Assembly: GCA_035528115.1 (NCBI GenBank)
Contig: DATKZF010000002.1
Location: forward strand, 5,751-69,750
DNA: 64,000 nt
Direction: 5' to 3'
From: Candidatus Bipolaricaulota bacterium
GTDB taxonomy: Bacteria; Patescibacteriota; Patescibacteriia; UBA11705; DATKZF01
The notes beneath the pieces are model-generated. The model was not told the DNA's origin, searched no databases, and saw nothing but the letters and a program-made list of their open reading frames with translations. The position numbers were made by a program, and so were the translations under genes. Positions 6,910 to 64,000 of the stretch are shown here, piece by piece; the stretch's first letter is position 1; every line of letters starts with the position of its first letter.

Positions 6910-6911
6910 TG

Positions 6912-13255: not shown

Positions 13256-13263
13256 CGCTCGCT

Positions 13264-13625: not shown

Positions 13626-13639
13626 CAAGGAGGATTCTC

Positions 13640-13680: not shown

Positions 13681-13716
13681 TTTTCATTAGAGATAAATTT
13701 CAATAATATGCGCTTC

Positions 13717-14127: not shown

Positions 14128-14134
14128 AAACAAT

Positions 14135-14548: not shown

Positions 14549-14621
14549 AACAACGGCCAAAGCCTTCGTGACTGATAAAAACAAATTAAAATAAAAGCCA
14601 ACAATCCATAACAAAAAACTT

Positions 14622-15152: not shown

Positions 15153-15217
15153 TTGCTTTTAGCGGCATCGTTTGCGAAAAAACGCCACCGGGGATAAAAT
15201 GAAAAGCATCAATATTT

Positions 15218-15764: not shown

Positions 15765-15852
15765 CTGAACCAGCAAGGCTTTAATATTGCCCTCTCCCCC
15801 ATTTTCTACTATACTGGAAGCAATGAACGCGAAAAATTCGCCTTAAAATCCT

Positions 15853-16557: not shown

Positions 16558-16627
16558 TCCCTGTTTTAAAATGAAAAAAGTCTGCCGGTGCAGCAGACGG
16601 GGTGAAAAGGTTGGAGTGTTGCTTGGT

Positions 16628-16831
16628 TCATGCCGCCCTCATCGTTGTGAGGTAGCGCAGACCTTCATCAGTAGCGAGAGCTCTGAGCCCGAGCCGCTTG
16701 AGCATGCCTAAAGTCACCTCCTTGGCTTCGTCTTTTCTCGTAATATCGAGAATTCGCTTGAAACCGGCAGGCCCGAAACGCCGTCTCAGGACTTCGATCT
16801 CGCGATCGAAATCATCGCAGTGAGCGCTCAT
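16628..16831 (-). CDS. hypothetical protein
   Basis: ORF only. Elevated GC (~55 %). Confidence 0.3.
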   Translation of the reverse strand: MSAHCDDFDREIEVLRRRFGPAGFKRILDITRKDEAKEVTLGMLKRLGLRALATDEGLRYLTTMRAA

Positions 16832-16864
16832 GACTCGGTCTCCTTTCCTCTGAAAATATGTAAA

Positions 16865-17197
16865 CTACTTATTGCTGGCGATGAAGTCATCGATCATCTT
16901 ACGGAATGAATCGTCTCCTTCCAAATCGAGGAACATTTTGTCTTTTTCTTCTCGAGGAAGAGTGCTGCCGATGGCCACGTGATACATCAAACATTCATTG
17001 AGTTTCGGCTGTCCGTGCTTGCTCCTCATCTTATTGACCTGCGCAACCATCGTATCGTAGAATTCCAGCACCAGATCGGAATCGTGATCATCCGTCAACT
17101 CCTGAAGTTTGCGCCGATAAATCCGCTCCTGCTCCAACATCTGCTCCGCCACGGCTCTGCCCTCCCCGCTTCCGCTTTGTCCTTCGATTATCGGCAT
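16865..17197 (-). CDS. hypothetical protein
   Basis: ORF only. Elevated GC. Confidence 0.35.
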   Translation of the reverse strand: MPIIEGQSGSGEGRAVAEQMLEQERIYRRKLQELTDDHDSDLVLEFYDTMVAQVNKMRSKHGQPKLNECLMYHVAIGSTLPREEKDKMFLDLEGDDSFRKMIDDFIASNK

Positions 17198-17287
17198 AAA
17201 ATAAATAGGTATCTTATTTCTCCTACCTTTATTTTACCGGACCTGGCATATTAAAGCAATATTCACCTTATTGTCAAATTTCCAAAT

Positions 17288-17884
17288 ATGTTCAAATGGA
17301 TACTCTTTGACCAAGCCAATGTCTTAACGCACCATGTTTTTACCACCAAACCGCTTTATTGCGCTGACAATCAGTGCTTTCCGGCCAAAGATTTGGAAAA
17401 AATTTATTACAGCCCCGAATTCTCCGCTTTCGAACTGGGTAAATTGGATTCGACCGCTCTGATCGATTCTTTTTTAAAACAACACAAAATCTGTCTGACC
17501 GTTCAAGGCTATAAAAAAATTTATCGGGAAAGCATTGAGCCGATCTTCGGCATGAAGGAAATAATCGAAAAATTAAAACAAAATTTCAGATTGGCGACTT
17601 TAATCAATGAAGGCGCCGAATGGGCGGAGCATAAATTCGAAGCCATGGGGTATAAACATTTTTTTGAACGAAATATCATCTCCGGCGATTTGGGAATGGT
17701 CAAGCCGGATGAAAGAATTTATAAAAAAGCTTTGGAGATAATCAATGCCGCGCCGGACGAATGCCTTTTCATCGACGATTTGGAGAAAAATTGCCGCGGC
17801 GCGGAAAACGTCGGCATAAAAGCCATTATGTTCATCAGTCCTGAGCAATTAACCAGGGAACTTGAAAAACTTTCAGTAATTTAA
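17288..17884 (+). CDS. HAD-superfamily hydrolase
   Basis: ILFDQANVL motif I-like start and C-terminal LFIDDLEKN (HAD motif IV DD). Confidence 0.6.
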   Translation: MFKWILFDQANVLTHHVFTTKPLYCADNQCFPAKDLEKIYYSPEFSAFELGKLDSTALIDSFLKQHKICLTVQGYKKIYRESIEPIFGMKEIIEKLKQNFRLATLINEGAEWAEHKFEAMGYKHFFERNIISGDLGMVKPDERIYKKALEIINAAPDECLFIDDLEKNCRGAENVGIKAIMFISPEQLTRELEKLSVI

Positions 17885-17892
17885 AAACAAAA

Positions 17893-17950
17893 ACGCCCAG
17901 CACCTTTTTGAAAGATAATTCATTTTTCAAAAAGGTGCTGGGCGTTTTTT
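17893..17950. terminator. bidirectional rho-independent terminator (16-bp stem cgcccagcaccttttt/aaaaaggtgctgggcg + T6)
   Basis: Lies between convergent genes. T/A runs on both sides. Confidence 0.6.
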
Positions 17951-17960
17951 ATCGTTGATT

Positions 17961-20153
17961 TTACGGATTGGTGATTTCAAGCTTTATCTGGCCATTATAA
18001 TTCGGAATGACCGACACCTGATAGTCAAAGGATGAAACCCGTTGATTTTGAAGACTTAAATAAAACGTTAAATTTCTTGGATTGGTATAAAACTGAAAAT
18101 ACCCGTTTGAATCCGTTGTTGCCAATAATTTATATGGCGATACGACATCATGAATTTCAACATATCCAATTCCTTCTTTTGTAACTTTATCCACGACCCA
18201 ACCGGAAATCATTCCCTGATTGCTGTCATTGGGACTGTATGAATAGGTTATTTGTGGAGATTCGTAAGAATCATTGATTATTTCAAGCGTCATCTGGCCA
18301 TTATAATTTGGGACGACAGACACCAGATATTCACCGCTGGGCGAAGCCCAATGATTGTGGATGCGTATCTTAAACTTTAATATCTTTGGGTCGGTAGAAA
18401 TCTGAAAATACCCGTTTGAGTCGGTCGTAGCCAATACAAGCGGACTCATATATGAAGCGGCGGTAATTTCTACATTGGCAATACCTTGTTTTGTGACATT
18501 ATCAATAACCCGACCGGAAATCATCCCATTGTTGCTATCATTCGGACTATAAGAATAAGTTACTTGCGGATATTTATAATTATTGTTATCCGGAGTAAGG
18601 CTGAAATCAGCCCTATACGAATTACCCAAAATTATTGACTTTTCAGCGGGATACAAGTTACCACTATACGCCTTAATTAAAAGGCTCTTGCCTCTAGTCC
18701 CGTAAAAATTAAATGAATACTCACCATTAATGTCTGTGCGGACATAAACGCGAGAGTTGCCCTGCAAAGCAGCTACTTCTACGGCCGGAATCGGCTGTCC
18801 GGTAACGCTGTTCGTCACTTTACCTCTAATTAAGAAGTATTCGAAATTCGGAATATTGCATGTCGGGCAAAGCGTTGGATTATTTATCTCGGGACGAATT
18901 TCAACTCTATAATCAGCAATGACTGAAACCTGATATCTAATTGATGTATCAGGAGAATAATCCAAATCCTTAGCGCTAAAATAAAGATTGATTACGCCGG
19001 GGACGTGATAAAAACTGAAATACCCATTAGAATCAGTAATCGGCTGATTTTTAAAACTAACCGGTTCACCGGCGACGCCCACCATAACATTGCCGATTCC
19101 TTTTTTAGTTGTTTTATCGATCAAAAATCCTGAGACTAACCCTTGCTTCACTTTATATCCATCAGGGGTTGGGCTATAGGAATAAGAAGCTGTAGGAATT
19201 TTTACTACCGTCTCTTCAACCGGATAATAAACAATGCTAAAATTCACCTGATTAGTATTACCCAATACAATGGATTTTTGATATGAATTGTAATTATCTT
19301 GCGACGCGGTTAAACGTATTGATTGCCCGTTTATTGCATATATCCGCAATGAATAATTACCGTTAACATCCGTTCTGTCTGAAGATGAATTTATTGAATT
19401 GGTTATCAAAATATTTGGTACCGGCTGACCATTCGCGCTATTTATCACCTTACCGCTGATCGTGAAGTATTGATAATTTTCGCTTACAGGAGTGGGCACT
19501 GTGCCTCCCGTCGGATAAACATAACCCGTATTCACCGAAATCTGCGACAAATCGGAATTGGTGATGCCAAGTCCTAATTTTCGCATCATGGTGTAAGCCG
19601 CGTCGGCACTACCCAAATAATATCTTCGTCCGTCCGAAGGATTAACATACCAAGCTTCGCCCGCGTGCTGAACCTGTAAAAATATTTTGCCTTTTTGATT
19701 ATTGGCGAAATTTAAATCAACGACTTTGTTGCCGAATCGAATGATCGGGCTGTAGCCGTTTAAAACTTCCGTTTTATCTTCATAACCATCGCCATCGCTG
19801 TCGCGAGAATTGGGATTGGAACCGAGTGATCTTTCGATCACATCAGCCAAACCGTCGCCGTCAGCGTCAATGCCATCGACATTCCAAGTGCCCAAAGGGA
19901 TTTTCATCAAATCCGCGTTGGTGATGCCGATCCCCAGGCTTCTCATTAAATTATAAGCGGCCGCGCCATCGGCCAAATAGATTCTTTTATTGTCGGCCGG
20001 ATTGACATACCAGGCTTCGCCATGATTTTGCACCTGCAATAAAATCTTGCCGGACAAACGCTCGGACATGGTCTGGGCAGAGCCGGAAACAGGTAAAATT
20101 AGCGAAAAAACTAACAGAAATAAACAACTTGAGATAATCAATGATTTTTTCAT
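17961..20153 (-). CDS. secreted surface protein with duplicated N-terminal modules, thrombospondin-type-3-like Ca-binding motifs and 5 carboxypeptidase-regulatory-like beta-sandwich repeats
   Basis: Signal peptide. Tandem LLQVQNHGEAWYVNPADNKRIYL / FLQVQHAGEAWYVNPSDGRRYYL modules. DADGDGLAD...DSDGDGYED. ISGKVINSANGQPV...TDVNGNYS-type repeats. C-terminal near-identical tandem duplication (MISGRVIDNVTKQGI / MISGWVVDKVTKEGI). Confidence 0.7.
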   Translation of the reverse strand: MKKSLIISSCLFLLVFSLILPVSGSAQTMSERLSGKILLQVQNHGEAWYVNPADNKRIYLADGAAAYNLMRSLGIGITNADLMKIPLGTWNVDGIDADGDGLADVIERSLGSNPNSRDSDGDGYEDKTEVLNGYSPIIRFGNKVVDLNFANNQKGKIFLQVQHAGEAWYVNPSDGRRYYLGSADAAYTMMRKLGLGITNSDLSQISVNTGYVYPTGGTVPTPVSENYQYFTISGKVINSANGQPVPNILITNSINSSSDRTDVNGNYSLRIYAINGQSIRLTASQDNYNSYQKSIVLGNTNQVNFSIVYYPVEETVVKIPTASYSYSPTPDGYKVKQGLVSGFLIDKTTKKGIGNVMVGVAGEPVSFKNQPITDSNGYFSFYHVPGVINLYFSAKDLDYSPDTSIRYQVSVIADYRVEIRPEINNPTLCPTCNIPNFEYFLIRGKVTNSVTGQPIPAVEVAALQGNSRVYVRTDINGEYSFNFYGTRGKSLLIKAYSGNLYPAEKSIILGNSYRADFSLTPDNNNYKYPQVTYSYSPNDSNNGMISGRVIDNVTKQGIANVEITAASYMSPLVLATTDSNGYFQISTDPKILKFKIRIHNHWASPSGEYLVSVVPNYNGQMTLEIINDSYESPQITYSYSPNDSNQGMISGWVVDKVTKEGIGYVEIHDVVSPYKLLATTDSNGYFQFYTNPRNLTFYLSLQNQRVSSFDYQVSVIPNYNGQIKLEITNP

Positions 20154-27389: not shown

Positions 27390-28448
27390 TTATTGCTCGT
27401 ACGATCTTACCCCCAAATAAATGACATTACCGTCCTCCGGATGCACGGTCAAGGCTCTGCCCGCTCTCGTGGTCGGCAATTTGGACGCGCTCCAGGTCTC
27501 GCCGCCATCCGCGCTGCGATAATAATTGGTATCGGTCGCGTAGTATATCTCATTGCCGTTTTTGGGGTTGATGGCCATGGAAAATATTTTGGTAGCATCG
27601 GGTTCTGTCAATAATTTCACTTCCTGCCAAGTCGCGCCGCTATCGACCGATTTCAAAATTCCGTAACCGGTGGCGTACAAAAGTGCGCCCGTTTGCCGAG
27701 ACTGGGCAATTTCAATCGATCTGCCAGCGTTGCTGAATTCTCTCAATTGATCTCGCAAACTCTGCCAATTTTGACCGCTGTCCGAGCTTTTATAAAGATA
27801 ATTTTTTTCCGTGCCCACGTAAAGCTTGCGAGAATCATCTTTATCCAAAACGATTTGATTGACTCTTGAAGGAAAATTATAAAGTCTTTCCCAATTTTTT
27901 CCGGCGTCCTGGCTTTTATAGAAATCCCCGGAATCAAGTCCGATATAAACCATGTCGGAATTGTAATAATCCACCGTCACCGCGGTCACCAATTGTCCGG
28001 CCGCCACCTTGAATACGTCTTCCCATTCTCTGGCGCAAGTCGAAGATTTGACCAATCTGGTATTGATGGCTACATAAATGGCGCAAGGATTTTTCGAATC
28101 CACATCCACTCCTCTGACAAAACCGGAATTCAAATCATCCACGGGCATCCAGCCATTGCCGTTATTGATCGAATAAAACAAACCATTTTCCGCGGTGGAC
28201 AAATACAGCACGTTCGAATCGCTCGGATCAAAAGTAAAATCCACCACATTGACGTCGCCGATCGTTCCCGGTGTCGCGCCCGGAGTCATCAAGTCCACTT
28301 TTCTTCCCCAATTTTCTCCGTTATCCGCGGAAATGAACACACCGCCCAAGTTTTGATCCGTCTGTTTATCGCCGCCCAATTTGATGCATCCCGACAGCGA
28401 AATCATCAATAAAATCGCCGCGCAGACAACTGATATTTTTTTTGGCAT
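27390..28448 (-). CDS. lipoprotein with BNR/Asp-box (SxDxGxTW) beta-propeller repeats (Ycf48-like)
   Basis: Lipobox LSGC. Asp-boxes SADNGENWG, SINNGNGW, SQDAGKNWE, SSDSGQNWQ, SVDSGATWQ, SADGGETWS. Confidence 0.6.
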   Translation of the reverse strand: MPKKISVVCAAILLMISLSGCIKLGGDKQTDQNLGGVFISADNGENWGRKVDLMTPGATPGTIGDVNVVDFTFDPSDSNVLYLSTAENGLFYSINNGNGWMPVDDLNSGFVRGVDVDSKNPCAIYVAINTRLVKSSTCAREWEDVFKVAAGQLVTAVTVDYYNSDMVYIGLDSGDFYKSQDAGKNWERLYNFPSRVNQIVLDKDDSRKLYVGTEKNYLYKSSDSGQNWQSLRDQLREFSNAGRSIEIAQSRQTGALLYATGYGILKSVDSGATWQEVKLLTEPDATKIFSMAINPKNGNEIYYATDTNYYRSADGGETWSASKLPTTRAGRALTVHPEDGNVIYLGVRSYEQ

Positions 28449-37389: not shown

Positions 37390-38241
37390 TTATTTTAAAC
37401 GGTTATTATCCCCGCGTCCAAGCTGTCGCGAGTTCCGCTTGTCAATCACGCTTTTTCCTGTTTTACTCTCAATCTCTTTTCTGGCGTTGCCGGCCACGTT
37501 CCCTCCTTGTCGCGCCACGACTTTATTTTGATCAAGATTTTTAGGCTCATGCTTTCGTGAAATTTCAGTTGTGGCGGTTTCAGCCAACATATTCAAAACC
37601 AACTCCATATTAGTCATATTGTCCCGCAAATTTTCTTTTTGAAGTTTCTTTAATCTTTTATATTCTTTGGTGGTCATTCCCGCCCAGGCTTCGGTAATTT
37701 CATCGGTTAAAATAGCGAATTCCCGTCCATCGCTAACCCCTCGATGTTCCCATTCATCAGTTAAAGCTTTACGTATCTCAATGCTTTTTAATCTTTGATT
37801 TATCCATTCCGGGCCATAGCCTTTTTGCAGATAGGTTTTTAACGCGCGATTGATAGCCAGCTCTGGATCAGCGGTTTCTTCCAATCTTTCATATCCAACC
37901 CTTGCCAACCATAACTTGAAAGGCTCCGCGTTGGGAGAAGGTATGGACTGAATAAGTCGAAGCATGGTTTCCGTATCAGCGGCGTCAGCAAGGCGCATTT
38001 TGCCGTCAGCGGCAATCATTTTCAAAGCGTGACATTTTGTCACGGTTTCATTTCCGCCCTCTTTAAGCAGTCTTTCCTTAAATTTCCGCCAATATGCCTG
38101 CGGGTCAACGCTCTTGGTCAAAACCGCAATTACATCTGATACGGCAAAATACCACAGCTCTTTATCCTCGTCCCAATGGCGACGGATTTGCTGGCCATCA
38201 AAGATAGCGATTGTCTTATGCTTTAATTGTTTTTTAGCCAT
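37390..38241 (-). CDS. Bro-N domain protein (DinD/antirepressor-like), likely mobile-element derived
   Basis: N-terminal IAIFDGQQIRRHWDEDKELWYFAVSDVIAVL resembles the Bro-N/DinD N-domain. GC (~50 %) is above the local background. Confidence 0.45.
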   Translation of the reverse strand: MAKKQLKHKTIAIFDGQQIRRHWDEDKELWYFAVSDVIAVLTKSVDPQAYWRKFKERLLKEGGNETVTKCHALKMIAADGKMRLADAADTETMLRLIQSIPSPNAEPFKLWLARVGYERLEETADPELAINRALKTYLQKGYGPEWINQRLKSIEIRKALTDEWEHRGVSDGREFAILTDEITEAWAGMTTKEYKRLKKLQKENLRDNMTNMELVLNMLAETATTEISRKHEPKNLDQNKVVARQGGNVAGNARKEIESKTGKSVIDKRNSRQLGRGDNNRLK

Positions 38242-51973: not shown

Positions 51974-52038
51974 AGGGATAGATAAATCTATCCCTTTAGG
52001 CTGACTTTGTCAGCCGGTTAGGTGGCGCTATGGCGCCA
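51974..52038 (-). terminator. three consecutive hairpins (gggatagataaatctatccc; ggctgactttgtcagcc; gtggcgctatggcgccac) downstream of giant gene, at the 33->65 % GC junction
   Basis: Perfect short palindromes read directly. T-rich tract after the first hairpin on the minus strand. Confidence 0.45.
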
Positions 52039-55000
52039 CGCCGCAGTCAAGAGGACACGAGTCCGGGGTCTCGTTCTGGGAGCAGAACAGATCCCCGCAC
52101 ACTTCCCCGCAGTCGGCCGGGCACGAGTTCGTGGTCTCGCTCGCCCGACAGACGGAATCTCCGCAAACGACGCCGCAGTCGGCTCGGCAAGAAACAGTAT
52201 CTTCACCGAGGCCGCAGAAGCCGTCGCCGCAGGACGAGCCACAGTCGCTCGCGCAAGTGACCGGCGTTTCAGGCGCCACGCACGCGCCGTCTCCGCAAAT
52301 CACCCCGCAATCGGCCGGGCAGTTGATGGTGTCCTCGCCGACTCCGCAGAAGCCGTTGCCACACGGTTCTCCGCAATCAGCCGGACACGTTCTGGTGTTT
52401 TCGTTCGCGCTGCAGAGTGTGTCGCCACACTCCCAGCCGCAATCGGCTTCGCAGTTCACGGAACTCTCGAAGCCGTTGCAAATGCCGTCTCCGCAGAGCG
52501 ACCCGCAATCCGCGGCGCAGTTGATCGAGGTTTCGACCGCCGCGTCACAGAAAGCGTCGCCGCAATTTTGGCCGCAATCGCCGGCGCAGTTCGCCGACGT
52601 CTCGCCTCCATTGCAGACATGGTCGCCACATCGGGTACCGCAGTCTGCTGGGCAATTCAGCGTGGTTTCGCCGGGAGTGCAGTCGCCGTTGCCGCAGACG
52701 CTTCCGCAATCTGCCGGACAAGTGGCGCTGTTTTCGTTCTGCGAGCAGTAGGCGTCGCCGCATTCCTGTCCGCAGTCCTCCTCGCAGATGGACGAATCCT
52801 CGCTCGCCCCGCAGGTCGTATCGCCGCAAGCGTCGCCGCAGTCGGCGGGACAGCTGGTCGTCGTTTCCGACTCCCCGCATGTACCGTCGCCGCAAGCATT
52901 GCCGCAGTCAGCCGGGCATGTCACCTGCGTTTCCGCGCCGTTGCAGGCATCATCACCGCAAACATATCCGCAATCGCTCGGACACGTCACCGTGTCTTCG
53001 CCGACACCGCAGATCTTGTTGCCGCAATTCTCGCCGCAATCGGCCGGGCACGTCCGGGTGTCTTCGTTCGGCGAGCAGTATGCGTCTCCGCATACCGCGC
53101 CGCAATCGCTTTCGCAGCTCACCGAGTTTTCCGACTCGCCACATACCATGTCACCGCAGGAATCCCCGCAGTCCACGGCGCAGCTTGCCGAAGTCTCGCC
53201 GGCCGCGCAGAAACCATCGCCGCATTCCAGGCCGCAGTCGGCCGGGCAATTCAGCGTGGTCTCGGTCCAGTTGCAGGCACCATCCCCGCAGGACGAGCCG
53301 CAGTCAAGTGGACAAATCCACGTGCCTTCGCTCATCGAGCAGTAGCCGTCACCACAGGATTCCCCGCAGTCCGGCAGGCAGGTGGCGCTGCTTTCGTTCT
53401 GCGAACAGTAGGCGTCGCCGCACTCCTGTCCGCAATCCGGTTCGCACGAGGACGAATCCTCGTTCCTGCCGCACGCGCCGTCCCCGCAGATATCGCCGCA
53501 GTCATCGGGGCAGCTCGTCGAGCTCTCGCTCGATCCGCATGTCCCGTCGCCACAGCTGTCTCCGCAGTCCGCCGGACACGTCGCGGAATTCTCGGCGCCG
53601 TTGCACGACGTATCGCCGCAGGTCGAGCCACAGTCCGCCGGACAAGAGGACGTATCCTCTCCGTTGCCGCAAACGCCGTTTCCACAACGCTCACCGCAAT
53701 CGTCCGGACACCTGACCGTGTTCTCTCCGCTACCGCAGAAGCCGTCACCGCAGTTCACGCCGCAATCGCTTTCGCAGCTCGCCGGAGTCTCCGACGATCC
53801 GCACACCGTATCACCGCAGGCATCCCCGCAATCCACGGCGCAGTTCGTCGAAGTCTCGCCGGCCGCGCAATAGGCGTCGCCACACTGCGCCCCACAGTCC
53901 GTGAGGCAACTCCAGGTGGTCTCGCCCCAGTTGCACACGCCGTCTCCGCAGCTCGGCCCACAGTCGGCCGGGCAGTTCATCGAGCCTTCGCTCGAAGAAC
54001 ACCACCCGTCGCCGCAGGATTCCCCGCAGTCCGTCATGCACGTAACCGTGGTTTCGGTCCCGTTGCAGGTTCCGTCACCACACTCAGTGCCGCAATCCAG
54101 CGCGCACGTCACCGTGTCCTCGCTGGTATCGCATGCCCCGTCTCCGCAGTACGGCCCGCAGTCCGCGGGACAGCTCGACGTCGTCTCCGACGCTCCGCAC
54201 GTCCCGTCGCCACAGGCGTCGCCACAGTCGCTCGGGCAGCTCGCCGGAGTCTCGGCTCCGTTGCATGCGGCGTCCCCGCAGTTCGTCCCGCAGTCATCCG
54301 GGCACGTCACCGAGCTTTCACTCGATCCGCACGCCGAATCTCCGCAGAAGTCACCGCAGTCCGCCGGGCAACTTCCCTCGTCCTCCGTAGCCGTATCGCA
54401 CTGACCATCGCCACACTGCGTGCCGCAATCGGTCGCGCAGGTCACGCTGGTCTCGCTTCCGTTGCACCTGCCGTCTCCGCAGGTGACCCCACAGTCAAAC
54501 GGGCAGCTCCACGTGCTTTCGCTCGTCGAGCAGTAGCCGTCGCCGCAGTAGTCCCCGCAGTCCGCCGGACAGGTCGCGCTCGTCTCCGAGTCCGGCGAGC
54601 AATACGCATCGCCGCACTCCACTCCGCAGTCCGCCTCGCAGCTTGCGCTGTCCTCGGTCGAACCGCAGGTGCTGTCTCCGCAGACGTCGCCGCAGTCCGC
54701 CGGGCACGTGGTCGAACTCTCGCTCGATCCGCATGTCCCGTCGCCGCAGGCGTCGCCGCAGTCCGCCGGACACGTCACGGACGTTTCCGAACCGTTGCAG
54801 GCGCTGTCGCCGCAAACAAATCCACAGTCCATCGGGCACGTAATCGTGTCCTCCTCAGGACCGCAGACCAGGTTGCCGCACGGCTCGCCGCAATCTGCCG
54901 GGCAAGTCAGCGTCGTTTCGTTCGGGGAGCAGTAGTTGTCCCCGCACTCAACGCCGCAGTCCGCCTCGCAACTCGCCGAGGTCTCCGACGATCCGCATGT

Positions 55001-58000
55001 CCCGTCGCCGCAGCTGTCGCCACAGTCATCGGGACACGTCGCCGAGCTCTCGCCGTTGTCGCAGAAACCATCGCCGCACTGCGTGCCGCAATCGGCCGCG
55101 CAGCTGATGGTGGTCTCCGCTCCGTCGCACCGGTCGTCGCCGCAGCTGGTGCCGCAGTCAGCCGGGCAGCTCGCCGTACTCTCGTTCGCCGAGCAATAGG
55201 TATCACCGCATGCCTCGCCGCAATCGGCGGGGCAAGTCAACGTCGTTTCGGAGCTCGACGAGCAATACGCATCGCCGCACTCCACTCCGCAGTCCGCCTC
55301 GCAGCTTGCGCTGTCCTCGGTCGAACCGCAGGTGTTGTCTCCGCAGACGTCGCCGCAGTCCACCGGGCACGTGGTCGAACTCTCGCTCGATCCGCATGTC
55401 CCGTCGCCGCAGGCGTCTCCGCAGTCGGCCGCACACGTCGCCGGGGTTTCCGCCGTCGGGTCACAGTACGTGTCCCCGCAGACGAATCCGCAGTCGCTCG
55501 GACACGTCACCGTGTCCTCGCCCACTCCGCAGACCCCATTGCCGCACGGCTCCCCACAGTCAGCAGGGCAGCTCACGTCGCTCTCCGTCGGGGAACAGTA
55601 GTTGTCCCCGCACTCAACGCCGCAATCCGCCTCGCAACTCGCCGAATTCTCAGACTCGCCGCACAGGCCGTCACCGCAGGCATCCCCGCAGTCGGCCGGG
55701 CAGCTGATCGTGGTCTCGGATGCGCCGCAGTAACCGTCGCCACAACCGTCCCCGCAATCGCCGGGGCAGCTGGCGAACGTTTCGAGACCGTTGCAGGTCC
55801 CGTCACCGCATTGCTGACCGCAGTCAGCCGGGCAGTTGATGGTGTCTTCGCCGACGCCGCACACCGTGTTTCCACACGGCTCGCCGCAATCGGTCGGACA
55901 CCTCACCGAGTTTTCGCTCGGGCTACAGTAGTTGTCGCCACAGACTTCGCCGCAGTCCGCCTCGCAGCTCACGCTGGTTTCGGAAGCGCCGCAGGCGCCG
56001 TCAGCGCACACATCGCCGCAGTCCGCGGGACAGGTGACCGTCGTTTCCGACGCGCCACAAGTACCATCGCCGCACGTGTCGCCGCAATCGGCCGGACACG
56101 TCGCGGGAGTCTCGGTATCGTTACAGGCGCCGTCGCCGCAGAAATGGCCACAGTCCACAAAGCACGAAACCGTGTCCTCGTCCGGACCGCAATAGCCATC
56201 GCCACAGGAGTCGCCGCAATCCTCGGGGCAGTTCGAGAAACTCTCGCCGCCGTTGCACGCGCCGTCGCCACAGCTCTGTCCGCAGTCAGCGGGACAGGAA
56301 ACCGTGGTCTCGGCGCCATCGCACCGGCCATCACCGCAGGAAGTCCCGCAGTCGGCCGGACAGCCCGACGTTGTTTCCATGGTCGAGCAGAAGGTGTCTC
56401 CGCAGGCCGTGCCGCAGTCAGCCTCGCAGCTGACCGTGTCTTCGGACAGGCCGCAGATGCCGTCGCCGCAGTCATCGCCGCAGTCGAGCGGGCAGTCCGT
56501 GCTGTCCTCGTTGGTCGCGCAGAAGCCATCACCGCAGAGCTCGCCGCAATCTGCCGGGCAGGTCACGGAGCTCTCGGTGCCGTTACAGGTCCCGTCGCCG
56601 CACTGCATGCCGCAGTCGGCCGGACAGTTGATGCTGGTCTCGCCGACGCCGCAAACCGTGTTTCCACACGGCTCACCGCAGTCGATGGGACACCTAATAG
56701 TGTTCTCGTCCGACCCGCAGTACCCGTCGCCGCAGGAATCCCCGCAGTCCTCCGGGCAAGTGGCCGAGGTCTCGGTGCCATTGCAGGCGGTATCGCCGCA
56801 GGCAGCGCCGCAGTCGGCAGGGCAAGTGACCGAATTCTCATCCGGCCCGCAGTACCCGTCGCCACAGGCGTCGCCGCAGTCCTCTGGACAGCTGGCGGGA
56901 TTCTCAGCGCCGCTGCACGCGTTGTCGCCGCAGTCGTCGCCGCAATCCGCGGGACATTTCGCCGCGGTTTCATCGAAACCGCAGTAACCGTCGCCGCAGG
57001 AGTCCCCGCAGTCTTCGGGACAACTGGAGTAGGTCTCCGCGCCGTTGCACGTGCCGTCGGGGCAGAATTCCCCGCAGTCCGCGAAACACGACGAAGAGCT
57101 TTCCTCAGGCCCGCAGTACCCGTCTCCGCAAGCGGAGCCGCAGTCCTCCGGGCAATTCGCAGTGGTCTCGGCGCCGCTGCAAGCGTTGTCGCCGCAGTCG
57201 TCGCCGCAATCCGCGGGACAGCTGGCCGCGGTTTCGTCGAAACCACAGTAACCGTCGCCGCAGGTATCCCCACAATCCTCCGGACACGTCGCCGGCGTTT
57301 CACCGCCATTGCACGCGCCGTCGGGACACAGCTCTCCGCAGTCCGAAAGGCACGTCACCGTGCTTTCGTCCGGACCGCAGACGCCGTTACCGCAAACCTC
57401 GCCGCAATCGCTCGGACACTTGACCGTGTCCTCGAGACTCGGCGAACAGAATGCGTCACCGCAGGTCGCCCCGCAGTCGATTTCGCAGCTGGTCGTGGTT
57501 TCCGACGCGCCGCAAACTCCGTCACCGCAGTCGTCCCCACAGTCGGCCGGACAGACACCGGAATTCTCACCGGGTCCGCACGTGCCGTCGCCGCAGTTCT
57601 CCCCGCAGTCGGCCGGGCAGCTGGCCGTCGTCTCGAGCCCGTTGCACGAGCCGTCGCCGCAGCTGTTGCCGCAATCGGCAACGCACGAAGCGGTGGTCTC
57701 AGTCAGGGCGCACACCGTGTTGCCGCAGTACTCGCCGCAATCGGCGGCGCACTTGACCGAATCCTCGTCCGCGGAGCAATGGCCGTCTCCGCAGGACTGA
57801 CCGCAGTCAGCCTCGCAGATGGCCGAGCTCTCCAAGGCGCCGCACGAAGCGTCGCCGCAGACGTTGCCGCAGTCGGCCGGACACGAGATCGTGTCTTCGT
57901 CCGGGCCGCAGAAAACGTCGCCGCATTCGTCCCCACAGTCCTCAGGGCAGGCCGCGTTGGTTTCCGTGCCGTTGCAGGCGCGGTCGCCACACTGCATGCC

Positions 58001-59245
58001 GCAGTCCTGGGGACAGGACACGGTGGTTTCGCCATCTCCGCACACGGTGTTGCCGCAAGGCTCGCCGCAGTCGGCCGGACAACTGACCGTGCCCTCGTCG
58101 GGAGAGCAGAAGTCATCGCCACATACCACTCCGCAGTCCTGCTGGCAGTTCCAGGTACGCTCGGTGAGGCCGCAGAGGCCGTCACCGCAGTCATCGCCGC
58201 AGTCGAGAGGACAATTCGTCGTCCCCTCGCCCGGGCCACAATCGCCGTCACCGCAGTACGTGCCGCAATCGGCAACACAGTCCAGAGAGGACTCCGTGCC
58301 GTTGCAAACTCCGTCGCCGCAGAGACTGGCGCAGTCTGCCGGACAACTCATGGTCGTCTCGGCATTGTTGCACGTCCCATCGCCGCAGGCCGTGCCGCAA
58401 TCGTACGGACAGCTGGCCGTGTTCTCGACTCCGTTGCAGGAGCCGTCGCCGCAGGCCGTGCCGCAGTCGTGCGGACAGTTCTGCGATGTCTCGTGCGCCG
58501 GGTCACAGAACCCGTCGCCGCAGTAGCTCTGGATCGGGGGCGCGCAGCCCTCGTCCACGAAGCCGTCGCAGTCGTTGTCCAGTCCGTCGCTGCAGACCTC
58601 GGGCGCGCCGGGGTAAACCGACGCGTTCAGGGGCGCGCAGTCGACGTTGTCGGGAGAGCCGTCGCCGTCCTGATCGGGCGGAGGCGGCTGACCGCAGTCG
58701 GCCGGACAGGTCACGGTCGTCTCGCCGTTGTTGCACGTGCCGTCGCCACACCACATGGTGGGCTGGCCGCCGCAGTCGGCCGGACAGCTCATTGCCGTCT
58801 CGCCGTTGTTACAGCTGCCATCGCCACACCACACGGTGGGCTGGCCGCCGCAATCGGCCGGACAGCTCATTGCCGTTTCCGTGCCATTGCAGCTGCCGTC
58901 GCCACACCACACGGTGGGCTGGCCGCCGCAATCGGTCGGACAGCTCTGCTGGGTCTCGCCGTTGTTGCAGCTGCCGTCGCCACACCACATGGTGGGAGAC
59001 TGGTTGCAGTCGGCGGGACAGTTGACGGGGGTCTCGATGGCGCTACAAACGCCATCACCGCAGACCGCCGGATTCGAACCTTGGGAGTTGTCGTACTCCC
59101 AATCGTTCGGCACGCACCGATGATCATCGGTGCAGTAGTGCCCTTCCGGGCAATCCACTCCGCCATTGCACTGCTTGTTGTCATCGCCACAACCGGCGAG
59201 AAGCAGCGCGACCAAGGCCACCAGGAACCAGAAACGTGCCTTCAT
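52028..59245 (-). CDS. giant secreted lipoprotein (2,405 aa) composed almost entirely of ~100 tandem Cys-rich CGDGxC-x4-5-E[TS]-x3-CPxDCG repeats
   Basis: Start chosen at [20 protein letters not shown] (lipobox) with GGGAGGA RBS. N-terminal MopE-like motif [33 protein letters not shown]. About 18 % Cys. Third-position GC strongly elevated. Confidence 0.8.
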
Positions 59246-59559
59246 GGTTTTCCTCCCGTGTTCGGCACTGTAAAGAAACGCGAAACTCAACTCTTGAGTT
59301 TTCGGTTGTCAAAGGTCAGCCAATTTGGCTGGAAGCAATGAAAAAGCAAAAAATTTTTCACTATTTCCAGCCAAATTTCATTCCCAAAGACGCAATTTTT
59401 GCACCTTATTAGGACAGCTAAACTTAACAAAAAAACATAGTTTTGTCAAGTTTTTTGGGCTATTTTTTAAATACACAATTTTTTGCCAATTTGTCAAGTT
59501 TATTTTTTAATAAATTTAGCCAAAACTTCCACTTATGAAGTCGATTTTAAACGGATTAA

Positions 59560-59625
59560 CTTACAATCAGAAAAGCGGCTCCAAACATGTTGGAACCGCT
59601 TCCTTTCCACCCGCATTGCGGGTAA
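59560..59625 (-). terminator. tandem hairpins (gcggctccaaacatgttggaaccgc; acccgcattgcgggt) downstream of 59638-61350 gene
   Basis: Read on minus strand: hairpins followed by TTTTCTGATT. Confidence 0.45.
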
Positions 59626-59637
59626 ATAAGTTAACGA

Positions 59638-61350
59638 TTACTGATTTCCTCCGGCGGCCGTGGCCCCGGGGAGGTACATTTTCAAGGCCGCCCCGGTGCC
59701 GGTGCACCAGAGGTAGCCGCCGGCGACGGCCTGAGGATCGGACTCGTCGCAAATTGCGCCGTAGTCCGCCCAGTCGATCGGGTGGCCGGAGTTTGACGAG
59801 TCGTACTGGACGTACGTAAACTCGCAGACTCCGGAGTAAAGGATGTCGCTCGGCTGGAATCGAAATTCGATCCAGCCATCCATGTCACCGTCGTAGAACG
59901 GCCCCATCCTGCCGTCCCAGACATACGTGATGCCCAGCTGGGGACAATCCCCCAGGATCCAGACCTCCGTGTCGTTGCTCACGTATTTACGATTGAGCTT
60001 GACACAGTTGGCCTCGTACGGGCAGGGCTCGGCCACGACGTCGTCGCCGGTCTCAGTGGGAGCAGACGACCCGCTGCATGCCTCCCAGTGGAAGGTGCAG
60101 TCGGCGTTGCACCACAGCGTCCCGGTCCAGCCGTGCTTGGCGCACGACTCGCCGTTCAGCTTGGTGTAGTCGCACTCCTCGCCGGCGTCGATGACATCGT
60201 TGCCGCAGGTCGGCGACGAGTCTCCCCCGCTGCATGCCTCCCAATGGAAGGTGCAATCGGCGTTGCACCACAGCGTCCCGGACCATCCGTGCTTGGCGCA
60301 CGACTCGCCGTCCAGCTGGGTATAGTCACATTCCTCGCCCGCGTCGAGTACGCCGTTGCCGCAGGTCGGCGACACCTCCCCGCCGCTGCATGCCTCCCAA
60401 TGGAAGGTGCAGTCGGCGTTGCACCACAGCGTCCCGATCCAGCCGTGCTTGACGCACGACTCGCCGTCCAGCTGGGTATAGTCACATTCCTCGCCTGCGT
60501 CGAGTACGCCGTTGCCGCAGGTCTGCGACACGTCTCCACCGCTGCACGCCTCCCAGTGGAAGGTGCAGTCAGTGTTGCACCATAGCTCTCCCGACCAGCC
60601 GTGCTTCGCGCACGACTCGCCGTTCAGCTTGGTGTAGTCACATTCCTCGCCCGCATCCAGGATATCGTTTCCGCAAACCCCGGAAGGGTCAGGATCGGGG
60701 TCGGGCATGGGATTTGGCGAACACGACTCGTCGGTCAAGCCGTCGCAGTCGTTGTCCACTCCGTCCCCGCACTCCTCGTTGTAGTACTGGCACGCCCCCC
60801 ACTGCCTGTTCTGGCAATGGGTGATGCCGATCTTGCAACCGGTCGGGGTGTAGCACCAATCGACTTGATTGGTCTGGCACTCGACCGTCGACAACGGCCG
60901 CTCGTTGACGTTGACGTCCACGTCGTTGTTGTTGTCGACATTGACGTTGTCAACGGCCTCGCACACGCAGGCGTTGACCGTGACGTCAACGTGCGTGCCG
61001 TCCGGACAAGTGACGGTCGCTTGCCCGTCTCTCGCGGGCGCGCTGGTCTGCTCAGCGAAGCAGAACTGCTCCGCCTCGCTCCAGCTCGCGCCGGTCGGAC
61101 AGAAAGCGCACTTGCCCGTCGCGGTCAGGTGAGCCCCGACCGGACAGGTCTTGCCCGCGCCGCTCTCGTATGGCGGCGCGTACGCATTCTGGCCGGTGAC
61201 TGCCGGCTGGTACTCGTAGCCAGCTTCCACACAAGCGCCGTCTTCGGCGCAGAAGTGCCCCGAAGGGCAACTGTTTTCGAAACACCCCCCCGCGTCTCCG
61301 CAGGAGGCAACCAGGAAACAGACGAAACCAAGAAAAATCAACCGTTTCAT
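59638..61350 (-). CDS. secreted Cys-rich repeat protein with four near-identical 50-aa Myxococcus-type Cys repeats and a MopE-like metal-binding motif
   Basis: Signal/lipobox MKRLIFLGFVCFLVASCG. Four tandem repeats of CGNGVLDAGEECDYTQLDGESCAKHGWSGTLWCNADCTFHWEACSGG. GDGVDNDCDGLTDESC. C-terminal domain shared with 61641-63194. Confidence 0.75.
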   Translation of the reverse strand: MKRLIFLGFVCFLVASCGDAGGCFENSCPSGHFCAEDGACVEAGYEYQPAVTGQNAYAPPYESGAGKTCPVGAHLTATGKCAFCPTGASWSEAEQFCFAEQTSAPARDGQATVTCPDGTHVDVTVNACVCEAVDNVNVDNNNDVDVNVNERPLSTVECQTNQVDWCYTPTGCKIGITHCQNRQWGACQYYNEECGDGVDNDCDGLTDESCSPNPMPDPDPDPSGVCGNDILDAGEECDYTKLNGESCAKHGWSGELWCNTDCTFHWEACSGGDVSQTCGNGVLDAGEECDYTQLDGESCVKHGWIGTLWCNADCTFHWEACSGGEVSPTCGNGVLDAGEECDYTQLDGESCAKHGWSGTLWCNADCTFHWEACSGGDSSPTCGNDVIDAGEECDYTKLNGESCAKHGWTGTLWCNADCTFHWEACSGSSAPTETGDDVVAEPCPYEANCVKLNRKYVSNDTEVWILGDCPQLGITYVWDGRMGPFYDGDMDGWIEFRFQPSDILYSGVCEFTYVQYDSSNSGHPIDWADYGAICDESDPQAVAGGYLWCTGTGAALKMYLPGATAAGGNQ

Positions 61351-61570
61351 GAAACCTTCTCCTTGCCGCGATTGCGGCTCCGTCTTGAACTTTTAGGCAA
61401 CTTGCCTATGGCTGAAAAGTAAACAAAAAGCCTCTCAAATCTACCTTTCAATCACAGGCAAATTCCGCTAAATTAACATATAAGTATATCATATTTAATC
61501 AAAAAAGTCAATAGTAAATAGAAAAAAACTCCAATTTTAACTTATTTTAGACAAATTTTTAAAATTAGAA

Positions 61571-61636
61571 GACGCTCTCGGTAAAGACCAAGAGCGTCAG
61601 TTGTGCATCCCCTCGTTGAGGGGGGTTGTTTTGATT
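61571..61636 (-). terminator. tandem hairpins (gacgctct..agagcgtc; cccctcgttgagggggg) downstream of 61641-63194 gene
   Basis: Two perfect stems between convergently ending and starting minus-strand genes. Confidence 0.45.
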
Positions 61637-61640
61637 CTTG

Positions 61641-63194
61641 CTAGAAGTGCAACTCGCCGTCGAGCCAGCAGCTGGTGGCGTCGCACTCCACCTGGAGCCC
61701 GCACTTGAAGACGGTGCAGTATAGCCCCTGGCCGCAGCACGCCAGAGGATTCGCGTAGTTCGCGCAGTCTCCGTACTGCGCGAAGTCGAACGGATCCCCG
61801 TCCATGCTGTTGTCCGGCTGGACGTAGGTGAACCGCAGGGTTCCCACGCCGGCCGGGACGATGAATTCGTAGTACCCGTCACCATCGGTATCCGTGAACG
61901 GACCGAGGCGATCGTCCCAATCGTAGCTAGGGCCACCGAACTTGGTCGAGCCCTCGACCACATGTCCGGCTTCGTCGATCTCATCGCCCAAGACGTAGAT
62001 CTCGGGCGAGTTGCTCGTCGGGAATCCCTTGTACAGACCGATGACTCGGCCTCCCAGGGACTTCACGATCTCCGTGCACTCGAAGTTGACCGGGCCCGGA
62101 CAGGCGCCGCAGTCAACCGCGCAGGTGGAGCATGTCTCCGTGCCCGCGCAGAACCCGTCTCCGCAGATGACGGGATCCTCGGAACCGCACGCTTCCAGGT
62201 GGAAGGTGCAGTCCGGGTTGCACCAGAGCTCACCGGTGTCAAACCCCAGTGACTGGCAGGTCTTGCCGTTGAGCTGGTAGTTGTCGCACTGCTCCGTGCC
62301 CTCGAGCACGTTGTTGCCGCAGATCTGAGTCGGCGTGGGCGGCGTGTTGGAACAGCCGCTCACGTCGAAGTGACACGACTCCAGGCACCCGAGGGCGCCA
62401 CCACCGTTGTAGCCGAGCGTCAGGCAGGTCGCCCCGCCGAACGCCAGGCCGTCGCATTGCTCGCCGCTGTCGAGGAACCCGTCCCCGCAGTGGCTGACCG
62501 GCGGCTGCGCGCACCCGTCGTCGGGCACACCGTCGCAGTCCTCGTCGATGCCGTTGCCGCAGACCTCAACCGCGCCCGGGTGGACGCTGGCGTTGAGGTC
62601 GTTGCAGTCCTGCGACGCCGGCGACCCGTCGTGGTCGCGGTCCGGGTCGCAGTCGGCCGGACAGTTGTCGAAGCTCTCGCCGAGCTCGCACTGCCCGTTG
62701 CCGCAGATCGGTCCGCCCGACGGCGGGCAGTCCTGCGGACAGTTGGCATTGTTCTCGCCATTGCCGCAGGTTCCGTTGCCACAGATCTCTGTGGCCGACA
62801 GCGGCGGGATGATGTTGTTGACGATGACGGTACTTCCGCCCTCAGGCTTGTCCGCGCAAACGCCGTTGTTGTTCGCGGACACGCCGTCCTCGTCGCAGTG
62901 ACCGACCTCGGCGCGCGCGTCGTCGAAGACGCAGCGCGTGCCGGGCAGGCACTCGTCGTTCGTGATGCACCCGGGAACGCACTTGAACGCGTTCTCCGGA
63001 CACGCCAGCTCCTTGACCTCTCGACAGACAGTGCCGCAGGAGCATTGCCCCTGATCGGCTCCGCTGACGTTGGTCCCGCAATCGGGGTAGTTCACAGCCT
63101 CACAGCTGGGGACTACGGTGTAGTTTTCGTCCGTGCCGCAACCGCTCAGCGCGGCCGCGACGACCAGAGCCACCAGACACAACATGCTCTTCAT
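61641..63194 (-). CDS. secreted Cys-rich lipoprotein, paralog of 59638-61350 (MopE-like motif + Myxo-type Cys repeats + shared C-terminal domain)
   Basis: Start at MKSMLCLVALVVAAALSGCG with AGGAGAG RBS. DCNDLNASVHPGAVEVCGNGIDEDCDGVPDDGC. CGNNVLEGTEQCDNYQLNGKTCQSLGFDTGELWCNPDCTFHLEAC. Confidence 0.75.
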   Translation of the reverse strand: MKSMLCLVALVVAAALSGCGTDENYTVVPSCEAVNYPDCGTNVSGADQGQCSCGTVCREVKELACPENAFKCVPGCITNDECLPGTRCVFDDARAEVGHCDEDGVSANNNGVCADKPEGGSTVIVNNIIPPLSATEICGNGTCGNGENNANCPQDCPPSGGPICGNGQCELGESFDNCPADCDPDRDHDGSPASQDCNDLNASVHPGAVEVCGNGIDEDCDGVPDDGCAQPPVSHCGDGFLDSGEQCDGLAFGGATCLTLGYNGGGALGCLESCHFDVSGCSNTPPTPTQICGNNVLEGTEQCDNYQLNGKTCQSLGFDTGELWCNPDCTFHLEACGSEDPVICGDGFCAGTETCSTCAVDCGACPGPVNFECTEIVKSLGGRVIGLYKGFPTSNSPEIYVLGDEIDEAGHVVEGSTKFGGPSYDWDDRLGPFTDTDGDGYYEFIVPAGVGTLRFTYVQPDNSMDGDPFDFAQYGDCANYANPLACCGQGLYCTVFKCGLQVECDATSCWLDGELHF

Positions 63195-63505
63195 GTCTCT
63201 CTCCTGTTGGGTTGCAATTTCGCGTGTTGTCAAGGTTCGTGCTGCCTCACTCGAGGCATTTTAATGACTCGCATTGATGCGGGGCATGAAAATGATTCAA
63301 GTGAAAGGAAAAGATTTCTCCACTCCGTCGTCCTTCGCCAAAGCTTCGGACGACTTCGGTCGAAATGACAAGAGTGTAAATCCTGAACTGCGCCTGCTTC
63401 TTTTCAGAAACAAACGCGGTTCAGGAGACCAACGAATAAGTGATTCGCTGGCTCCACTCCACTCCTTTCCGCCTTCAGTTGAAGGCCACGATTACGGCTA
63501 GTCGC

Positions 63506-63925
63506 CTAGTCGCCGTAGCCGTAGTAGGACTTTTTTGTCCCAGCGACGTGATGGCAGTGGCCAGTGCCGCAGACGATTGCGGTAATCAGTAGCCCAAGGC
63601 CGGCAGCGCTCCCAGCGGTGATACCGAAGATCTCCCAGCCCGTGAGCTTGCGCCCCTCCACGATAAACGTTGTGTCGTCGTGGTACTCGAGCGTCTGGTT
63701 CTGGTCGCTCTGCCCCTTGACCGCTCCGCTCTGCCGTCGCAGAAGCTTCTGCGGATCGGGCGGGACCAAGATGTTCTTGCCGTCCGAGCAGGTTACGCTC
63801 AGACTCTGGTTTTCTGCGGCGACGACCTTCGCCGCCGGGCACACAAGAGTGCTCCCGTCTTTGCAGGAGAACACCAGGCCTCCATCGGAGGTCGGCGTCG
63901 GCTCCTTGACGATCGGGCAGACCAT
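63506..63925 (-). CDS. hypothetical Cys-containing protein with C-terminal TM anchor. N-terminus may lie beyond the window end.
   Basis: ORF with about 60 % GC. Hydrophobic C-terminal segment ITAGSAAGLGLLITAIVC. The frame stays open towards position 64000. Confidence 0.35.
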   Translation of the reverse strand: MVCPIVKEPTPTSDGGLVFSCKDGSTLVCPAAKVVAAENQSLSVTCSDGKNILVPPDPQKLLRRQSGAVKGQSDQNQTLEYHDDTTFIVEGRKLTGWEIFGITAGSAAGLGLLITAIVCGTGHCHHVAGTKKSYYGYGD

Positions 63926-64000
63926 CTGCCCGCTGTCCGGCTGGGGCGACGCGGCCGTCGCCTCGTTCGAGGAACGGCGCGTCGTCGTTCTCGTCGAGGT

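Follow-up and report, generated by a model that had tools for sequence, protein, structure and literature searches.

Clusters of large extracellular proteins that are rich in cysteine (~7%) have been described in Candidatus Peribacter riflensis (Peregrinibacteria, Candidate Phyla Radiation [CPR]), where a role in attachment or rigidity was proposed for them (PMC4736985; Anantharaman et al. 2016). They show weak similarity to the Cys-rich repeats of Myxococcus and occur in an organism that invests in surface polysaccharides (PMC4736985). Two further points of reference are the Myxococcus repeat itself (TIGR02232 myxo_disulf_rpt / PF13948 DUF4215) and the surface-associated or secreted protein MopE of Methylococcus capsulatus. 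In this study, we analysed a 64,000-nt stretch of DNA (contig DATKZF010000002.1, positions 5,751 to 69,750; hereafter the window), whose host label, 'MAG TPA: Candidatus Bipolaricaulota bacterium' at NCBI, was taken as given. Two adjacent genes near its end, here called P1 and P2, encode acidic, Cys-rich proteins of 570 and 517 aa that are paralogues, carry lipoprotein export signals and end in a common C-terminal domain with only about five known members. The Cys-rich surface proteins of uncultivated bacteria are suspected of a role in attachment, and we propose, with confidence that is about evenly balanced, that P1 and P2 may be lipid-anchored surface proteins in which an acidic stalk, held by disulfides and probably by Ca2+, displays this rare domain as a head.

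P1 and P2 are paralogues with lipoprotein signals

In the open reading frame (ORF) listing of the window, P1 and P2 are both intact on the minus strand (Table 1). The exact P1 protein is present on five contigs. For P2, the ATG start is the one used in public gene calls; an alternative TTG start at position 63233 would give a protein of 530 aa, 13 residues longer. BLASTP aligned the two proteins over 272 aa with 36% identity (E = 1e-39), and together with the export signals found in both this bears out the first-pass annotation, made from the sequence alone, which had described them as paralogous exported Cys-repeat proteins. P1 contains 51 Cys and P2 52, corresponding to 9–10% of residues, and both proteins are strongly acidic, with 80–89 Asp plus Glu against 16–20 Lys plus Arg (89 against 20 in P1).

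The lipoboxes that had been read in both N-termini were confirmed by a PROSITE PS51257-type lipoprotein rule, which looks within the first ~35 residues for a basic n-region, an uncharged h-region and the lipobox [LIVMFWSTAG]2-[LIVMFYSTAGCQ]-[AGS]-C. The rule placed the lipid-accepting cysteine at Cys17 in P1 and Cys19 in P2, and it also recognized the giant protein encoded next to P1 (Cys19) and a ~187-aa neighbour of P2 (Cys21). The signal peptide is the sole hydrophobic window of P1 (Kyte–Doolittle mean over 19 residues, 1.86), and no hydrophobic segment was found past residue 30 in either protein, where the best 19-residue Kyte–Doolittle window was ≤1.07. A scan for sigma-70-like promoters returned six sites in the region, where shuffled sequence led to an expectation of 1.0. 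Because a terminator-like hairpin follows P2 and a promoter-like site with 10 of 12 consensus positions precedes P1, the two genes are taken to be separate transcription units.

The common C-terminal domain is close to an orphan in sequence searches

The isolated C-terminal segments of P1 and P2 align with 37% identity over 114 aa (E = 4e-18), and the conserved blocks quoted in the first-pass annotation are visible in the alignment, so that its claim of a common C-terminal domain was correct. Its description of the domain as Cys-poor was not, since we counted about five Cys in the P1 domain and about 10 in that of P2; the domain is poorer in Cys than the repeats only.

An exhaustive HMMER search of 1.84 billion representative proteins returned P1, P2, a protein fragment designated P0003 (1.3e-9) and five weak matches at 7e-7 or worse. 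The three weak matches examined are multi-domain Ig/cadherin/CBM48-like repeat proteins and, as read from the sequences, the weak matches appear to rest on a hairpin of ~30 residues (W.WD..GP..D.DGDG.Y.F). Homology to the CBM48/Ig-like repeat was considered but not adopted, since an hhalign comparison lent it little weight. CarbopepD_reg_2 matched the domain weakly (E = 0.16), over the ~30-residue hairpin only. A word-indexed search of 5.8 billion proteins found nothing with the P2 domain and P0003 only with the five-member alignment of the family. A scan of genome contigs gave one 28-residue match of chance level, in a Saprospiraceae protein, which was discarded and looks like a CarboxypepD_reg-type hairpin. 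No match to the domain was obtained in two metagenome-contig scans, one viral-contig scan and a plasmid tblastn search; Pfam and NCBIfam gave nothing useful for it at E ≤ 10, and sequence and profile searches of the PDB gave no useful match for the domain or for P1. With about five proteins among billions, the family has few members, and by these searches its domain is nearly an orphan.

The five-member alignment shows aromatic blocks that are conserved, together with one or more conserved Cys pairs. Four of the five members carry a D-x-D-x-D-G-[WFY]-x-E loop, which fits the Ca2+-type pattern D-x-[DN]-x-[DN]-G with an acidic residue after it, in the forms DGDMDGWIE (P1), DTDGDGYYE (P2), DDDGDGFYE (L008-A, from a metagenomic locus introduced below) and DSDGDGWPE (P0012, a relative also described below).

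The acidic bodies are built from several kinds of Cys-rich module

The sequence motifs quoted in the first-pass annotation are present in P1 and P2 as written, and the curated models sharpened what they can be called. P2 carries a complete MopE-type motif, scoring 43.4 bits with PF11617 against a gathering threshold of 27 (E = 3.9e-11, model positions 1–30 of 30), and this motif aligns with residues 6–50 of MopE* (PDB 2VOV; 1.9e-7); the core domain of MopE, which carries the Cu(I) site, was outside the alignment. The N-terminal segment of MopE* that is matched is not in the crystal structure, and the Cu(I) site, formed by His132, His203 and kynurenine130, lies elsewhere (PMC3423442), so that the match is uninformative on copper binding. 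Of this motif, P1 has the CGDGVDNDCDG half alone, which scores 17.4 bits with NF033662 (cutoff 41); the Pfam search gave no PF11617 hit in P1 at E ≤ 0.01. The MopE-like character that had been ascribed to both proteins is therefore borne out for P2, with P1 retaining half a motif. The half-motif region of P1 forms a DNA repeat (D4) with P2 62507–62567 and also matches the giant protein (E = 2.8e-4).

P2 further contains 4-Cys units of the CGxGxC...CPxDC type, located by regular expression, and this is the building unit of the adjacent giant protein: P2 aa 135–246 align with aa 137–252 at the N-terminus of the giant with 52.6% identity over 116 aa (3e-27). The remaining modules are six-Cys repeats of 46–52 aa, those of P2 being homologous to those of P1 by BLASTP. 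With TIGR02232 (cutoff 20.8) the repeats of P1 scored 13.8 bits and those of P2 16.3 bits, over model positions 2–17 of 38, and with PF13948 the P2 repeats reached 17.4 bits against a cutoff of 27. The overlap with TIGR02232 is confined to the opening CGNGxlDxGEeCD, the first ~15 of 38 positions. Calling these repeats Myxo-type, as the first reading did, is thus right for the opening and fails at the thresholds of both models; they are related to the Myxo repeat, but longer and with six Cys, and are non-members by the curated tests. Searching with the whole of P2 gave 341 proteins, of which the top-listed ones align to parts of P2 only; many of the matches carry PF11617 or PF13948, and they are labelled Myxococcota, 'Deltaproteobacteria', Patescibacteria and others.

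The P1 repeats are old duplications under purifying selection

The six-Cys repeats of P1 had been reported as four almost identical copies of 150 nt (50 aa) whose number is likely to be unstable or under-assembled. The count was right: Tandem Repeats Finder reported 3.8 copies at 60070–60654, with 89% matches and a score of 909. The period is 156 nt (52 aa), and the copies are far from identical, with pairwise DNA identities of 78–93% among the four units (7–22% of bases differ) and no exact run longer than 43 nt common to any two of them. The units differ with dS values of 0.17–0.97 and dN/dS values of 0.11–0.30 (Nei–Gojobori), and they are therefore old duplications under purifying selection, among which only that of units 2 and 3 is fairly recent.

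Both genes are 100% identical in nucleotide sequence on an ENA contig assembled with MEGAHIT (k141) and on a JGI contig. Among ~15 billion proteins, P1 has no cluster partner at 90% identity, and no allele with a different copy number is on record. Given that exact sharing does not exceed 43 nt, assemblers using k > 43 or reads of 150 nt place the units uniquely, and collapse or mis-assembly of the repeats is unlikely. Taking these results together with the divergence of the units and their low dN/dS, the suggestion of an unstable copy number was not upheld. Two Logan contigs (L006 and L007, 2.75 kb) stop inside repeat 1 of P1, at aa 247, and the longer ENA and JGI contigs read through this point; the breaks are consistent with exact repeats of 31–43 nt having broken a small-k assembly graph.

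Related genes recur in clusters in other metagenomes

The fragment P0003 comes from a metagenomic locus, L008 (JGI 3300009320), in which it forms the end of a Cys-rich protein that is at least 257 aa long and is followed in tandem by two further lipoproteins. In the first of these a divergent copy of the C-terminal domain can be made out by eye only and was undetected by HMM; the second has the N-terminal module of P1 (Table 1). A weak TSP_3 match (E = 0.021) was also found in the L008 relative. The other relative, P0012 (792 aa; NCBI GCA_012974705.1, locus L011), has the full architecture, with a lipobox, a Cys region at the N-terminus, MopE motifs, a CGNGxC unit and a pair of six-Cys repeats, and it ends in a divergent copy of the C-terminal domain, which scores 29 bits against the family HMM; by BLASTP the protein matches both P1 and P2 at ~2e-17. 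In L011 it is followed by a small lipoprotein and then by a CGDGxC-repeat lipoprotein of giant size, which shares 41% identity with the giant of the window (3e-32). The gene family thus recurs in clusters in at least three lineages, namely the host and two other metagenomic lineages. Searching L008 and L011 by tblastn with the 188-, 244- and 477-aa proteins of the window's gene cluster gave nothing significant, and claims of synteny are accordingly limited to the P2-like and giant genes.

P1 and P2 lie in a compositionally foreign island of envelope genes

At 52.0 kb of the window the GC content rises from ~0.40 to ~0.65, and the GC-rich block that begins there runs past the window end to a length of ~15.7 kb (~3650–19380 of the public contig locus L001; window position = 71351 − L001 position). 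The block holds at least seven genes, all on one strand and all encoding membrane- or lipid-anchored proteins. The three-gene island of the first-pass annotation is therefore too small as a description, although the kinship of P1 and P2 with the adjacent giant on which it was based is real. Upstream of P2, four more envelope genes occupy L001 3688–7845, from window position 63506 to beyond the window; the window end cuts that of the ~187-aa lipoprotein, which starts near window position 64069. One flank of the island is formed by genes for Wzz-like, HtrA-like, DUF5656, AI-2E, SmpB and IF3 proteins and the other by Wzy_C and GT4 genes.

The public ENA and JGI gene calls take a plus-strand shadow ORF (52022–59341; 2439 aa, rich in Ala, Arg and Val) opposite the giant gene. 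Because the minus-strand ORF has a lipobox, repeats and homology to P2 and to the L011 giant, the public records probably mis-annotate the giant protein. Upstream of its gene, an AT-rich spacer (59291–59637) contains two AACTTGACAAA copies ~50 nt apart, and each copy is a possible –35 element, which would give the giant gene tandem promoters.

GC content at third codon positions (GC3) is 0.74–0.85 in the island genes, which prefer CTG/CTC, CGG, AAG and GAG; host genes, including those for DnaK, MreB and DnaJ, have a GC3 of ~0.5 and prefer TTG, AGA, AAA and GAA. The island coding sequences are thus compositionally foreign. Translational selection was ruled out as the cause of the high GC3, as DnaK, MreB and DnaJ use the host codons. 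Most island spacers have a host-like GC content of 0.26–0.38; several of them carry TTGACx-17-TAxAAT promoter-like sites, and ribosome-binding sites of the GGAGG type precede the genes. The clusters of other metagenomes (L011 1537–10190 and L008 2–3791) likewise have coding GC well above that of their spacers, with GC3 values of 0.39–0.70 against 0.25–0.36 in the spacers. Since they show the same gap in a milder form, the gap travels with the gene family, and since in addition the island spacers are host-like, a simple recent import from a GC-rich donor is not the full explanation. Neither an integrase gene nor a tRNA gene was found, a search of the island edges for direct and inverted repeats gave none, and scanning the window for Rfam families and tRNAs returned nothing. 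A phage origin of the island is without support, the PHROGs matching only a low-complexity collagen-like segment of a neighbour gene.

Table 1. Coordinates of the features of P1, P2 and the surrounding island (window positions; aa, residues of the protein concerned)
Feature	Position	Strand	Description
P1 gene	59638..61350	–	570 aa, acidic Cys-rich lipoprotein; HUT22093.1, VMX18_01640, NCBI name 'hypothetical protein'
P1 signal peptide and lipobox	61300..61350	–	aa 1–17, MKRLIFLGFVCFLVAS/C; PROSITE-type lipoprotein regex
P1 N-terminal Cys module	61096..61299	–	aa 18–85; 31% identity over 87 aa to the N-terminus of L008 lipoprotein C, E 3.7e-7
P1 half MopE-type motif	60715..60777	–	aa 192–212; ECGDGVDNDCDGLTDESC; NF033662
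P1 tandem six-Cys repeats (four)	60052..60675	–	aa 226–433; 156-nt (52-aa) units
P1 C-terminal orphan domain	59641..60033	–	aa ~440–570; DGDMDGWIE loop, DxDxDG type
P1 sigma-70-like promoter	61483..61511	–	TTGACT-17-TATACT, TG extension
Terminator-like hairpin, 3' of P2	61571..61598	–	12-bp stem followed by a T run
P2 gene	61641..63194	–	517 aa from ATG, acidic Cys-rich lipoprotein; NCBI 'putative metal-binding motif-containing protein'
P2 signal peptide and lipobox	63138..63194	–	aa 1–19, MKSMLCLVALVVAAALSG/C; PROSITE-type lipoprotein regex
P2 4-Cys CGNGxC...CPxDC units (two)	62649..62783	–	aa 138–182; regex coordinates
P2 MopE-type motif	62517..62609	–	PF11617
P2 six-Cys repeats (two, ~46 aa)	62187..62489	–	aa 236–281 and 292–336; DNA repeats D2, D3
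P2 third 4-Cys CGxGxC...CPxDC unit	62109–62165	–	Regex coordinates
P2 C-terminal orphan domain	61644..62102	–	aa 365–517; DTDGDGYYE loop
Giant lipoprotein	52028..59245	–	2405 aa; ~100 units of a 22-aa four-Cys CGDGxC...CPxDCG repeat, 17.5% Cys
~187-aa lipoprotein, 3' part	63506..64000	–	C-terminal transmembrane (TM) helix; lipobox MKRFARMASMFTCVTFLMAS/C; L001 ORF 7204–7845
Island 477-aa protein	Beyond window		Zn-ribbon, TM helix, coiled coil
Island 299-aa protein	Beyond window		Tail-anchored; Zn-ribbon, acidic stretch, collagen-like repeat
Island 244-aa protein	Beyond window		Signal-anchored

The rest of the window

The remainder of the window is an ordinary bacterial chromosome, with genes for MetRS, MurJ, Ack/PTAC, GlyRS, RRF, MreB, CysRS and HrcA-GrpE-DnaK-DnaJ. 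Two other candidate surface proteins, both with the normal codon usage of the host and both on the minus strand, are encoded there: a BNR/Sortilin-Vps10-type repeat protein (27390–28448) and a 730-aa protein (17961–20153) with three CarboxypepD_reg domains and a weak TSP3_bac match. Between the housekeeping genes for CysRS and Dus lies a gene (37390–38241, minus strand) for a Bro-N domain protein of 283 aa, which matches the phage family phrog_15286 over its full length (E = 1.1e-120). Three classes of codon usage are present in the 64 kb, at 1–12000 (GC3 0.27), 14000–52000 (~0.5) and 52000–64000 (0.74–0.85). The MetRS gene (1970–3589, GC 0.31) belongs to a cluster at ≥90% identity that includes 'Candidatus Woesearchaeota archaeon' and Tara Oceans sequences. 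These observations point either to a genome that is strongly mosaic or to relatives that were mis-binned.

Discussion

The architecture of P1 and P2 points to a stalk that carries a head. The proteins would be exported by Sec, lipidated at Cys17 (P1) or Cys19 (P2) and tethered to the membrane by their N-termini. Their acidic body would then consist of small Cys-rich modules in a row, with an N-terminal knot, four-Cys CGxGxC...CPxDC units of 22 aa, a DxDxDG motif like those of MopE and TSP3, and six-Cys units of 46–52 aa, and these would form a rigid spacer held together by disulfides and Ca2+. At the membrane-distal end would stand the C-terminal domain of ~130–150 aa as the probable ligand-binding head, in which the DxDxDG-[WFY]-x-E loop and the aromatic blocks WD, FTY-Q and WAQYG are kept. 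Surface exposure, disulfide bonding, Ca2+ binding and an adhesive or binding role are all inferred. In favour of this reading, P1, P2, the giant and a fourth neighbour all have lipoboxes, the composition is acidic and rich in Cys, and the neighbouring genes include those of the envelope type (Wzz-like, Wzy_C and GT4). The recurrence of the architecture in P0012, the tandem relatives in L008 and the DxDxDG loop in four of five family members also argue for it, as do the paralogy of the two proteins and their conserved domain, the purifying selection on the repeats, the transcription signals of P1 and P2 and the published Peribacter precedent.

Several observations weigh on the other side. The host is labelled Bipolaricaulota, an anaerobic group, which would make extracellular disulfides less obviously stable, and neither Lgt/LspA nor disulfide-forming machinery was found among the scanned ORFs of the window. 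With codon usage foreign to the host, it is also questionable how well P1 and P2 are expressed. As to the head, comparison of the domain family with one CBM48/Ig-like repeat by hhalign gave a probability of 17%, which connects it to no known binding fold, and the AlphaFold2 models were unusable, with pLDDT values of 33.6 for full-length P2 (without an alignment) and 32.2 for the P1 C-terminal domain (with a three-sequence alignment).

A cross-linked lattice, S-layer-like or serving as a spacer, might be formed instead by P1, P2, the giant and the collagen-like tail-anchored protein, with the C-terminal domain serving self-association or other protein–protein association. That all seven island genes encode membrane- or lipid-anchored proteins, one of them with a collagen-like repeat, that P1, P2 and the giant have modules in common and that the island lies among polysaccharide and O-antigen-type genes would suit such a structure; however, domain scans gave no S-layer homology or SLH domain, only part of the cluster recurs elsewhere, and the evidence does not distinguish self-association from binding of a foreign ligand. 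We consider the lattice unlikely. A role in handling metal, in which clusters of Cys and Asp would sequester or acquire copper or other ions as in MopE, is suggested by the 'putative metal-binding motif' that P2 carries, by its match to MopE* and by the abundance of Cys and acidic residues in both proteins. It is nevertheless improbable, as the part of MopE* that is matched comprises its N-terminal 46 residues, missing from the crystal structure, the residues of the high-affinity Cu(I) site are without counterpart (PMC3423442), P1 has half a motif only, and the regular spacing of the Cys fits structural disulfides.

The first-pass annotation had offered the C-terminal domain as either a sorting/attachment module or a functional head, and of the two the head fits better because the anchor is N-terminal. 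In favour of a module recognized by a dedicated export or anchoring system, the domain always stands at the C-terminus in family members, and some of the weak profile matches were to T9SS-tailed proteins, though on internal repeats and not on the tails. However, no Pfam or NCBIfam sorting model (Por_Secre_tail, MYXO-/PEP-CTERM, LPXTG) matched the domain at E ≤ 10, P1 and P2 have no terminal hydrophobic helix or basic tail, and they already possess an N-terminal lipid anchor. Nor did the neighbouring secretion or sorting system whose presence had been raised appear: no secretion, sorting or sortase-type gene was found in the window or in the ~12 kb beyond its end. With about five proteins among billions being too few for a general signal, a sorting function seems quite improbable. 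Finally, the island might be an artefact of a chimeric assembly join, or recent foreign DNA that the host does not use. Its GC3 and codon choices, opposite to those of the host, would agree with this, as would the third compositional class in the window and the clustering of MetRS with Woesearchaeota-labelled proteins. Yet host-type genes flank the island on both sides in contigs of 138 and 150 kb, and the longest carrier contig on record has 762,837 bp; all the genes are intact with GGAGG-type ribosome-binding sites, most have an AT-rich spacer and several a host-like TTGACx-17-TAxAAT promoter; the repeats are under purifying selection; and no integrase gene, tRNA gene or flanking direct repeats were found. 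We therefore regard this explanation as highly improbable.

If the stalk-and-head reading is right, it adds a defined architecture to the Cys-rich surface proteins of uncultivated bacteria, a poorly understood group: the lipid anchor is N-terminal, the stalk is modular and held by disulfides, and the head is an orphan domain, which would be a new fold family. The combination of genes in foreign codons with host-like spacers would provide a small, clean case for the acquisition or evolution of surface clusters. The value of these findings is modest, as they have no bearing on a long-standing open question. More speculatively, the island could be a surface-display cassette that is exchanged horizontally among uncultivated small-genome bacteria, the C-terminal domain being a new Ca2+-dependent receptor-binding fold for cell–cell attachment; the GC enrichment confined to coding sequence might then reflect a gene-specific process, for example biased gene conversion between surface genes that recombine, and not plain GC-rich import. 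We think it clearly unlikely that this whole picture is correct.

The kind of system to which P1 and P2 belong is already known; new are the explicit lipoprotein architecture, the head domain as an orphan and the contrast in composition. An analogy of a general kind can be drawn with the thrombospondin type-3, EGF and LDLR-A arrays of eukaryotes, in which chains of disulfide-knotted acidic modules with DxDxDG loops form a rigid extracellular spacer ending in a globular head. The analogy rests on general knowledge of these arrays, and the anchor here is a bacterial lipid; apart from the weak TSP_3 match in the L008 relative, no significant sequence match to thrombospondin, EGF or LDLR-A modules was found. 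P2 resembles MopE of M. capsulatus in its one full PF11617 motif, and both are surface-associated or secreted, but neither P1 nor P2 has the MopE core domain or Cu(I) site. Each six-Cys repeat of P1 and P2 opens like the Myxococcus repeat, and many homologues of P2, from Myxococcota or 'Deltaproteobacteria', carry PF13948; in contrast, the units here are longer, have six Cys and continue with a different second half (..G.sC...G..G.LwC...C.F....C). The closest likeness is to the Peribacter system, judged by its published description and not by direct comparison of the sequences: both are found in uncultivated bacteria of small genome size, with clustered Cys-rich secreted or membrane proteins, weak similarity to Myxo repeats and investment in surface polysaccharides. 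Unlike the Peribacter proteins, P1 and P2 are explicit lipoproteins, are smaller (517–570 aa, with a neighbour of 2405 aa), end in an orphan C-terminal domain and are encoded in an island of foreign codon usage.

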